NCBI GenBank assembly: GCA_964016885.1
Contig: OZ024754.1
Coordinates: 33,046,001 to 33,110,000 of the forward strand
Direction: 5' to 3'
From: Eledone cirrhosa
Lineage: Eukaryota
DNA length: 64,000 nucleotides
Shown here in pieces: positions 40,872 through 42,394 of the stretch (position 1 is its first letter; every line of letters starts with the position of its first letter). The notes beneath the pieces are model-generated. The model ran no database searches. It saw only the letters and a program-made list of their open reading frames with translations, and was not told where the DNA came from. Position numbers and translations under genes: made by a program.

Positions 40872-40920
<49 letters not shown>

Positions 40921-41143
40921 GATAACAAAATATCGTTATAGGTAATCCAGTTAGAGGTTGTGAATACTTCTTATTATGGATAGTTTTAGCGTACGGCTTT
41001 GTTTGACTCAACAAGAGGTTTACGTAGATGGGGAGTTTATGATTTAACTTGTATTCCTATGTAAGTTTATCTTGGAGTAATAAAATTGAAAAAAATGTGA
41101 AGAATAACATGGTCAACAGTACAAAAAAGGGGAATTTATTTAC

Positions 41144-41251
41144 AGTCTAACAATTGTTTCTCTGATTAAGTTGTCTAAATATTGCTGAACACTAGAAGCA
41201 GTGCCACTCAATTTTATATACGATGCTAGCTCAATTATGTCATCAGAAACT
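41144..41251 (-). ncRNA. type I hammerhead motif with long stem II insert
   Basis: agttt CTGATGA ..~80 nt.. GAAA caattg TT agact. Confidence 0.6.
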
Positions 41252-42089
41252 CTTATAAAAAATATAACCAGCAAATCTACAAATTCAAATTACAGCATCA
41301 ATAATAATATTAGTAATAAAGATAGAGAGAGAACAAAAGAAAGAAAGAGAGATAGATAAAGGAAAGAAAAAAAGAAAAAGGAAAAATAAAAAGAAGAAAA
41401 AGGAAAAACAAAAAGGAGAAATGAAAAACAGAAAGATATATAGACAAAAAAAGATGTAGAGAAAGGGGGATAGAAAGAGAATAGAAAAGGATAGAGGAGA
41501 AATGACGTAAGAGAAAAAATATGATATCAACAATAAATGAATAAATGTTAATTCATGAATAAATGTTAATTCATGAATAAATGTAAATAAATAAATAAAT
41601 AAATGAATAACTAAACAAATTACATCAAGGCTGATACAAAATGATACAAAATATGAAATATGAAAATATGAAAATATGAAAATATGAAAATAAATAAGTA
41701 AAAATGTGCGAAGAAATTTAAACATTTAAAGATTATTGCAAGTGGTTAAAATATAGAGAGATGCGAAGGTATAAATATGATAATGTTAAATATATTTATG
41801 TGAGTATTGGTTATTTTAATAAATTAATTATATAATTCATTAATTATTAGATTAATTAGTTGTATGTTATATTAGAAGTGAAAATGATATGATAAGATAC
41901 AATACTAGGGATGAAATAAATTTATGGAGAGAAATAGAGATAGAAAGATAGAGATACATAAAATATGAATGTAAATATAAAAGGTTTTGATGTTGGTTCA
42001 TTGATAGATAGTGACAATTATAACAATAATGATGATGATGTGATATTATATTAGATCTAAGTGGTACAATTTTGAATGGATAAGATGAA

Positions 42090-42391
42090 TTAAGCTGGTC
42101 TAAAGTTCTCAAATTTGGTCGCCATTTTATGCCTACAGTTCTTTCAATTTTACTGTTAAGTAGCATTTTGTTGTACTTCAAAATTTGGAAAAGCTCCATA
42201 TTACAAAGACCACAGTGGGACATGCCAATTCGATAGGCCGTTGCTGTTGATAGCTTTGTCCAGCTGATTTTATATTCCATGTTTGCATCTCTGAGTTGCC
42301 AGATTTTATTGGCGAGAGTTGTTGTATTTGTGAGTTTCCTGTTAATCATAGAGTGTCTGTGGACGTGCCACCTTTTCTTAAATTCTCCATA

Positions 42392-42394
<3 letters not shown>
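42090..42394 (-). pseudogene. PLE GIY-YIG endonuclease C-terminal fragment
   Basis: FKKRWHVHRHS..TTLANKIWQLRD..YKISW..ATAY..CGLCNME..I..LLNSKIE, then a frameshift gives NCRHK..FRPA*; pattern recognised from PLE endonucleases. Confidence 0.8.

Follow-up and report, generated by a model that had tools for sequence, protein, structure and literature searches.

Layout, endonuclease and hammerhead of the 40918-42394 copy

Within the 64,000-nt stretch of Eledone cirrhosa DNA analysed here (the window), the minus strand of positions 40918-42394 carries a 5'-truncated, frameshifted copy of a Penelope-like element (PLE) with a C-terminal endonuclease (EN). The copy lies between two (TA)n targets detected by TRF, (TA)14 on the 5' side (42395..42422) and (TA)15 on the 3' side (40888..40917). 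Read on the minus strand, it opens with the 5'-truncated C-terminal half of a GIY-YIG EN (42140..42388; 90% identity to the EN of locus L039), with R, H, CxxC, E and N residues in GEFKKR..H..CGLC..E..LLN. The end of the EN follows past one frameshift (42090..42139, by tblastn) as CRHK..RPA*, in which CRH forms the CxH motif before the stop. Downstream are a low-complexity 3' UTR of ~840 nt that is collinear in other copies (41253..42089), a type I hammerhead with a 79-nt domain II and a palindromic stem III (41143..41252; predicted cut 41149/41148), a pLTR segment (41083..41142) whose end is terminus A, at about 41083, and a 165-nt tail (40918..41082) whose end is terminus B. In full copies, the tail is followed by a 48-nt leader and an ATG. 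The initial annotation had read the order (TA)n, EN C-terminus, UTR, hammerhead, tail and (TA)n from the minus strand, and its coordinates and motifs were correct. The single frameshift that it placed in the EN fragment was also borne out, with a tblastn frame change near 42137; 7 nt are absent relative to loci L117 and L101.

Judged by a modelled fold, the window fragment is a GIY-YIG endonuclease, as had been proposed, although the GIY and YIG strands themselves are absent from the window copy and present solely in longer copies. An AlphaFold model of the L039 EN, built from a 95-row alignment, reached a pLDDT of 91.4, and its top structural match among 48,161 chains was I-TevI (Z 9.5, rmsd 2.3, 88 residues aligned), with T4 EndoII (Z 7.8) and UvrC (Z 6.4) as further matches. 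A Foldseek search with the same model returned GIY-YIG proteins in its top five rows (E 0.14-1.4) and nothing at E<=0.001. Pfam searches of five proteins (the window fragment and four longer ORFs) returned no GIY-YIG or reverse transcriptase (RT) family, and searching PDB sequences with the EN profile gave 0 matches.

The hammerhead of the window copy comprises stem I (41251-41247 / 41148-41144), the core CTGATGA (41246-41240) and GAAA (41160-41157). The same elements, together with stem II, the palindromic stem III and the cut triplet, recur in 45 copies of three sister families, and domain II measures 79-82 nt across families with a predicted fold of one long hairpin, the fold z ranging from -2.9 to +1.7 in 16 copies (window copy, +1.7). 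Mean Watson-Crick pairs within families were 4.3-5.1 of 6 for stem I in the family of the window copy (family A) and the 31165 family and 3.7 in the 10065 family (the latter two named here after window islands), and 6.8-7.1 of 9 for stem II. When family A is compared with either island family, these counts drop to 1.0-2.4 for stem I and 3.0-5.1 for stem II, and the hammerhead stems therefore covary, on counts that take no account of relatedness and include one mis-anchored row of the 10065 family (L140). In the youngest subfamily, two positions at the stem II base are mismatched, and the subfamily of the window copy has two mismatches next to the core; position 9 is mostly U in the 10065 family, and a U.U pair stands at the stem II base in two of the families.

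In the window copy, the hammerhead recognised by the initial annotation is present but decayed, with 5/6 pairs in stem I and 6/9 in stem II, and the minimum free energy fold is not a hammerhead and is worse than shuffles (z +1.83). An Rfam scan of the window at the gathering threshold gave 0 matches, and a short-spacer hammerhead pattern failed to detect the window hammerhead. For annotation, Rfam misses a hammerhead whose domain II is this long. Judging from its sequence, the hammerhead of the window copy is probably inactive. Related short hammerhead-core motifs were also observed at window positions 5511, 6082, 18231, 23055, 30562 and 60082, and the short core pattern has 19 window matches vs 1.5 expected.

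Element family and clade

In the 3.0-Gb genome of the same species, 150 scored matches to the window fragment were obtained at 75-100% identity, drawn from 48,247 first-look candidates, a figure that is not a copy number. At other EN-selected loci, the EN, UTR, hammerhead and end A or B are collinear within 1.5 kb in 23 of 29, and an RT lies upstream of the EN in longer stretches of family copies, which are broken and collinear. One locus, L046, holds the whole element: (TA)n, a direct 5' pLTR, the 48-nt leader, ATG, RWK, DKT, CxCX5C, EN, UTR, hammerhead, tail and (TA)n. The unit spans about 3.6 kb, of which 1.17 kb lie between the stop and the end. One Cys of the CxCX5C motif is mutated in L046, and intact CNCHLPDKC and YRDD occur in other copies. 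Co-occurrence of ORF and tail, on which the initial annotation had staked its interpretation, thus recurs at other loci. Its proposed walk 5' to an intact RT-EN ORF led to the upstream RT and the full-length L046, but an intact family-A ORF was found in none of 12 near-full copies, and any activity of family A is accordingly putative. A more distant Hydra family (parent L047:1-3757) has an intact 721-aa ORF, with identities to family A of 44% in the RT and 39% in the EN.

Several other features were observed around these copies. A SINE-like repeat of ~180 nt with >15 window matches is inserted into several Hydra copies (L046 at about 5370-5540; window 12208-12393, 44836-45029, 49703-50082, 51788-52166, 56710-57084, 59421-59603 and others). 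Near Hydra copies, on the L026 minus strand and in L121, there are remnants of further PLE-like ORFs of GIY-YIG type, whose endonuclease differs and is CCHH-like in L026. Near-identical locus pairs 0.5-1.2 Mb apart (L145/L146, L007/L008, L121/L122 and L128/L129) are either segmental duplications or assembly duplicates.

Craig et al. 2021 (PMC8557442) set the Hydra clade apart by an RWK motif, DKT, the linker CxCX5C, loss of the CCHH motif, a CxxC and a CxH that flank the catalytic E and N, and (TA)n as the insertion target; sequence inspection found all of these in Eledone cirrhosa copies. A single ORF with RT followed by a C-terminal GIY-YIG EN is seen in the broken family copies and is intact in L047. 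Near the N-terminus, RWK appears as RRIRWK (L171, L172 and L176), the DKG to DKT change as KADKT (L019/L045), and the linker as CNCHLPDKC in many copies, while CGLC..E..LLN..CRH in the window copy and others provides the CxxC and CxH flanking E and N. The EN has no CCHH, with no Cys pair between the GIY and YIG strands in longer copies of the window family, and the termini of copies adjoin (TA)n. The hallmarks of Penelope/Poseidon, Neptune and Nematis (CCHH in the EN, DKG) were not found, and Naiad/Chlamys was rejected as an assignment, requiring an N-terminal EN where the EN here is C-terminal. Motifs and architecture support a Hydra-clade PLE, which narrows the C-terminal-EN Penelope-like identity given by the initial annotation. 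Homologues of the L047 protein gave 2,009 matches among 8,000 scored proteins, mostly unnamed; among 120 listed of these, R[WY][KR] was present in 115, DK[TS] in 118, DKG in 1, CxCX5C in 111 and CxxC-E-N-CxH in 114. From these sequences, the Hydra clade appears to extend far beyond the 27 families that were listed for it in 2021 (PMC8557442).

Termini, inverted arms and islands

Family-A copies have one of two ends, A (at about window 41083) or B (40918), which lie 165 nt apart and are each followed by (TA)n, and the template continues with TA at or just past both sites. Exact-pattern counts were 350 for A+(TA), 324 for B+(TA) and 8 for B read-through into the leader, an A:B ratio that is approximate because the A and B patterns differ in length; reversed-pattern controls gave 0. 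Pairing was scored in 30 A-selected and 30 B-selected loci, each the first 30 exact matches on one contig and biased to little-mutated copies, with arm ends taken from BLAST endpoints. At A-selected loci, the inverted partner stopped at B in 22 (21 into TA) and at A in 0, with 2 others ending inside the tail, 1 reading through B, 1 ending inside the ORF and 4 loci without a partner. The position of A was reached by the partner in 25 of these 30 loci, 22 stopping at B and 3 elsewhere beyond A. At B-selected loci, the partner stopped at A in 18, near A in 3 (ambiguous) and at B in 0, the remainder being 2 partners short of A and 7 loci without one. An inverted arm was absent from 11 of the 60 sampled loci. 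After 6 shared loci and 1 apparent duplicate were dropped, 33 independent A/B insertions were left, with 0 A/A and 0 B/B; one B/B insertion (L088) was found in the 31165 family. The A/B pairing supports coupled priming from two RT start sites.

Arm starts were measured in the 31 of 34 A/B loci with simple starts (L146, L189 and L194 excluded). They lay <20 nt apart in 9/31 insertions; the B arm never reached A in 5/31, and the arms overlapped with an offset in 17/31. In 13/31, the A arm carried >20 nt missing from the B arm (counted by hand), and both arms started <=420 nt from B in 19/31. Tail-selected copies were mostly short, the EN being reached collinearly within 1.5 kb in 4 of 29. At the 5' junction of the window copy, an inverted A arm was considered and is not claimable, only about 5 extra bases being present there.

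Two islands of the window were located by sequence match as B arms joined to inverted A arms. Island 1 has its B arm on the minus strand (10065..10190) and its inverted A arm, with an end homologous to A, on the plus strand (10198..10265), and island 2 has its B arm on the plus strand (31165..31360) and its inverted A arm, which includes the 3' part of the hammerhead, on the minus strand (31020..31166). In each, the A arm stops at the homologue of family A's terminus A. The resemblance of the 3' end of the window copy to both islands, noted previously, was confirmed at 75% identity over 207 nt for 31165-31360 (E 6e-35) and 80% over 117 nt for 10065-10180 (E 4e-25). The nearest relatives of the islands, at 89-92% and 91-98% identity vs 75-80% to the window copy, form separate families. 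The 10065 tail is joined to an EN at locus L117 and the 31165 tail at L101, L214, L219 and L225, and the EN of the 31165 family is mostly 65-82% identical to that of family A.

By these matches, both islands belong to sister families of the 40918-42394 family, each with its own EN-linked copies, and because of this the likely mobilising enzyme is the RT-EN of the sister family, not necessarily that of the 40918-42394 family. The initial annotation had regarded the islands as 3' ends of C-terminal-EN PLEs mobilised by the enzyme represented at 40918-42394. EN-linked tails in longer copies agree with the former and with a PLE of this type as mobiliser, but the islands are two-armed inverted insertions, larger than had been noted, and the enzyme is refined to the sister family's own.

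Six further window islands belong to the L047 family (9833-10031, 12417-12609, 24446-24644, 57311-57504, 60882-61024 and 42588-42688), of which 5/6 are likewise inverted and one-sided in structure, the tail measuring about 80 nt. More (TA)n-flanked islands, in which the inverted repeat reaches one end only and apparent tails are about 49-140 nt, occur at 4634-5033, 10512-10923, 17735-18071, 24938-25413, 29475-29833, 30271-30658, 31397-31730 and 42423-42563; these are probably other PLE families. For annotation, many short TA-flanked islands of this genome look like PLE insertion products.

Integration model and comparison with known systems

From what was observed (a single RT-EN ORF, the pLTR, (TA)n as target, two exact ends A and B, and A/B pairing on opposite arms), we interpret 40918-42394 as a 5'-truncated Hydra-clade PLE copy and the sister-family islands as two-armed insertions, likely made by an RT-endonuclease that cuts (TA)n and starts reverse transcription at two fixed sites in the RNA (probability roughly 0.85). 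The GIY-YIG domain would open a (TA)n run on both strands; cDNA synthesis would be primed at B from one of the target ends and at A from the other, and the TA that closely follows each site in the template may assist priming. If the two cDNAs stopped early and were joined head to head, the insertion would have two inverted arms and a one-sided tail; a plain 5'-truncated copy, as at 40918-42394, would be left where there is no second arm or where it is too short to be recognised. In intact families, the hammerhead would process the pLTR RNA. In vitro, a Poseidon PLE cuts AT-rich DNA and extends it on both strands, with RT starts at two tail-bounding sites (Frangieh et al. 2024, PMC11167929). 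In the available text of that report, the start site did not differ between top and bottom strands, which counts against coupling.

A stricter form of this model, for which the odds appear evenly balanced, is obligatory asymmetric twin priming, in which the cut (TA)n ends are primed at A and B, plausibly with one site per subunit of an RT-EN dimer. The TA-flanked one-sided inverted islands, in their thousands, would on this view document the PLE integration step directly as it occurs in vivo, the tails being family-specific (about 50-165 nt) and domain II of the hammerhead measuring 80 nt. The in vitro work, in its available text, shows two RT starts and both-strand extension, not how they are combined (PMC11167929), and a family in high copy number, its two termini separated by 165 nt, allows coupling to be counted and offers defined RNA sites.

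Strict A/B pairing is likewise predicted by fold-back, as proposed in PMC3846280 and PMC8557442, in which a single cDNA begun at B serves as its own template and the intermediate is resolved at A by the endonuclease. The near-palindromic junctions of the 9/31 insertions with near-coincident arm starts (e.g., L053) fit this explanation and count against two-site priming. The B/B insertion L088 and the 11/60 one-armed loci also count against two-site priming. However, fold-back needs the A arm to lie inside the B arm, which is not so in 13/31 insertions, and in 5/31 the B arm never reaches A; as the general route, fold-back is therefore judged rather unlikely, and fold-back self-priming and two-site priming may both operate. 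A non-autonomous element in its own right (retrozyme or SINE-like), with its 5' end fixed at the hammerhead and only the enzyme borrowed from a PLE, would suit the shortness of most tail-selected copies and the 19/31 insertions with both arms starting <=420 nt from B, and retrozymes have been proposed as PLE derivatives (bioRxiv 10.64898/2026.07.22.740005, available text). Against it, 5' starts are scattered, with none seen by eye to be fixed at the hammerhead cut site (about q1248) in aligned loci, the loci inspected hold no tandem arrays, the hammerhead core is missing from many arms, and each island family continues into UTR and EN in longer copies, making such an element improbable. That an ORF remnant, a hammerhead-like motif and a repeat, all unrelated, came to lie side by side by chance could account for a window copy without Pfam or Rfam matches, but is refuted, for practical purposes, by the collinear EN-selected loci and the full element L046.

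The preferred reading, an RT-endonuclease starting from two RNA sites at a cut (TA)n run, can be set against systems already described. Non-LTR retrozymes have in common with the islands short repeats, a type I hammerhead and a palindromic stem III (PMC7229834), but form tandem arrays with a hammerhead per unit, whereas the islands are dispersed, inverted and variably truncated. A non-LTR retrozyme was rejected as an identity for the islands, which are single inverted pairs continuous with EN-coding copies, not tandem non-coding units. Poseidon PAc of the green anole (PMC11167929) shares an AT-rich target and two termini that bound a tail downstream of the hammerhead; it differs in belonging to another clade and in having a 30-40 nt tail inside the ORF start, where B lies 48 nt upstream of the ATG here, and its available text reports no coupling of start site and strand. 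Penelope elements of Adineta vaga, as far as PMC3846280 describes them, have a 31-bp tail, low copy number and readable TSDs, with no pairing count. Neither 'twin priming' nor 'extended stem II' was found in the PLE literature searched, most subscription journals lying outside that scope.

Closest are the described Hydra-clade families (e.g., Hydra-1_Obim and Penelope-n_HM; PMC8557442), with which RT followed by a C-terminal GIY-YIG EN, the motif set and (TA)n are held in common; the putative hammerhead resembles theirs in its type I topology and, for two of the present families, in having a U.U pair at the stem II base. By eye, the supplement protein of Hydra-1_Obim is alike in its N-terminus and RT motifs, and its protein and hammerhead indicate a different family. 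In PMC8557442, the Hydra clade, (TA)n targeting and, qualitatively, the one-sided tail are already described. The unit of about 3.6 kb compares with generally under 3 kb in described Hydra PLEs, and domain II of 79-82 nt with 10-24 nt in the Hydra rows of its File S2. PLE tails are given as 30-40 bp, often at one end only (PMC8557442, PMC3846280), vs 165 nt here. Relative to described PLEs, the departures are the tail length of 165 nt, the long domain II of the hammerhead and the A/B rule as counted here.
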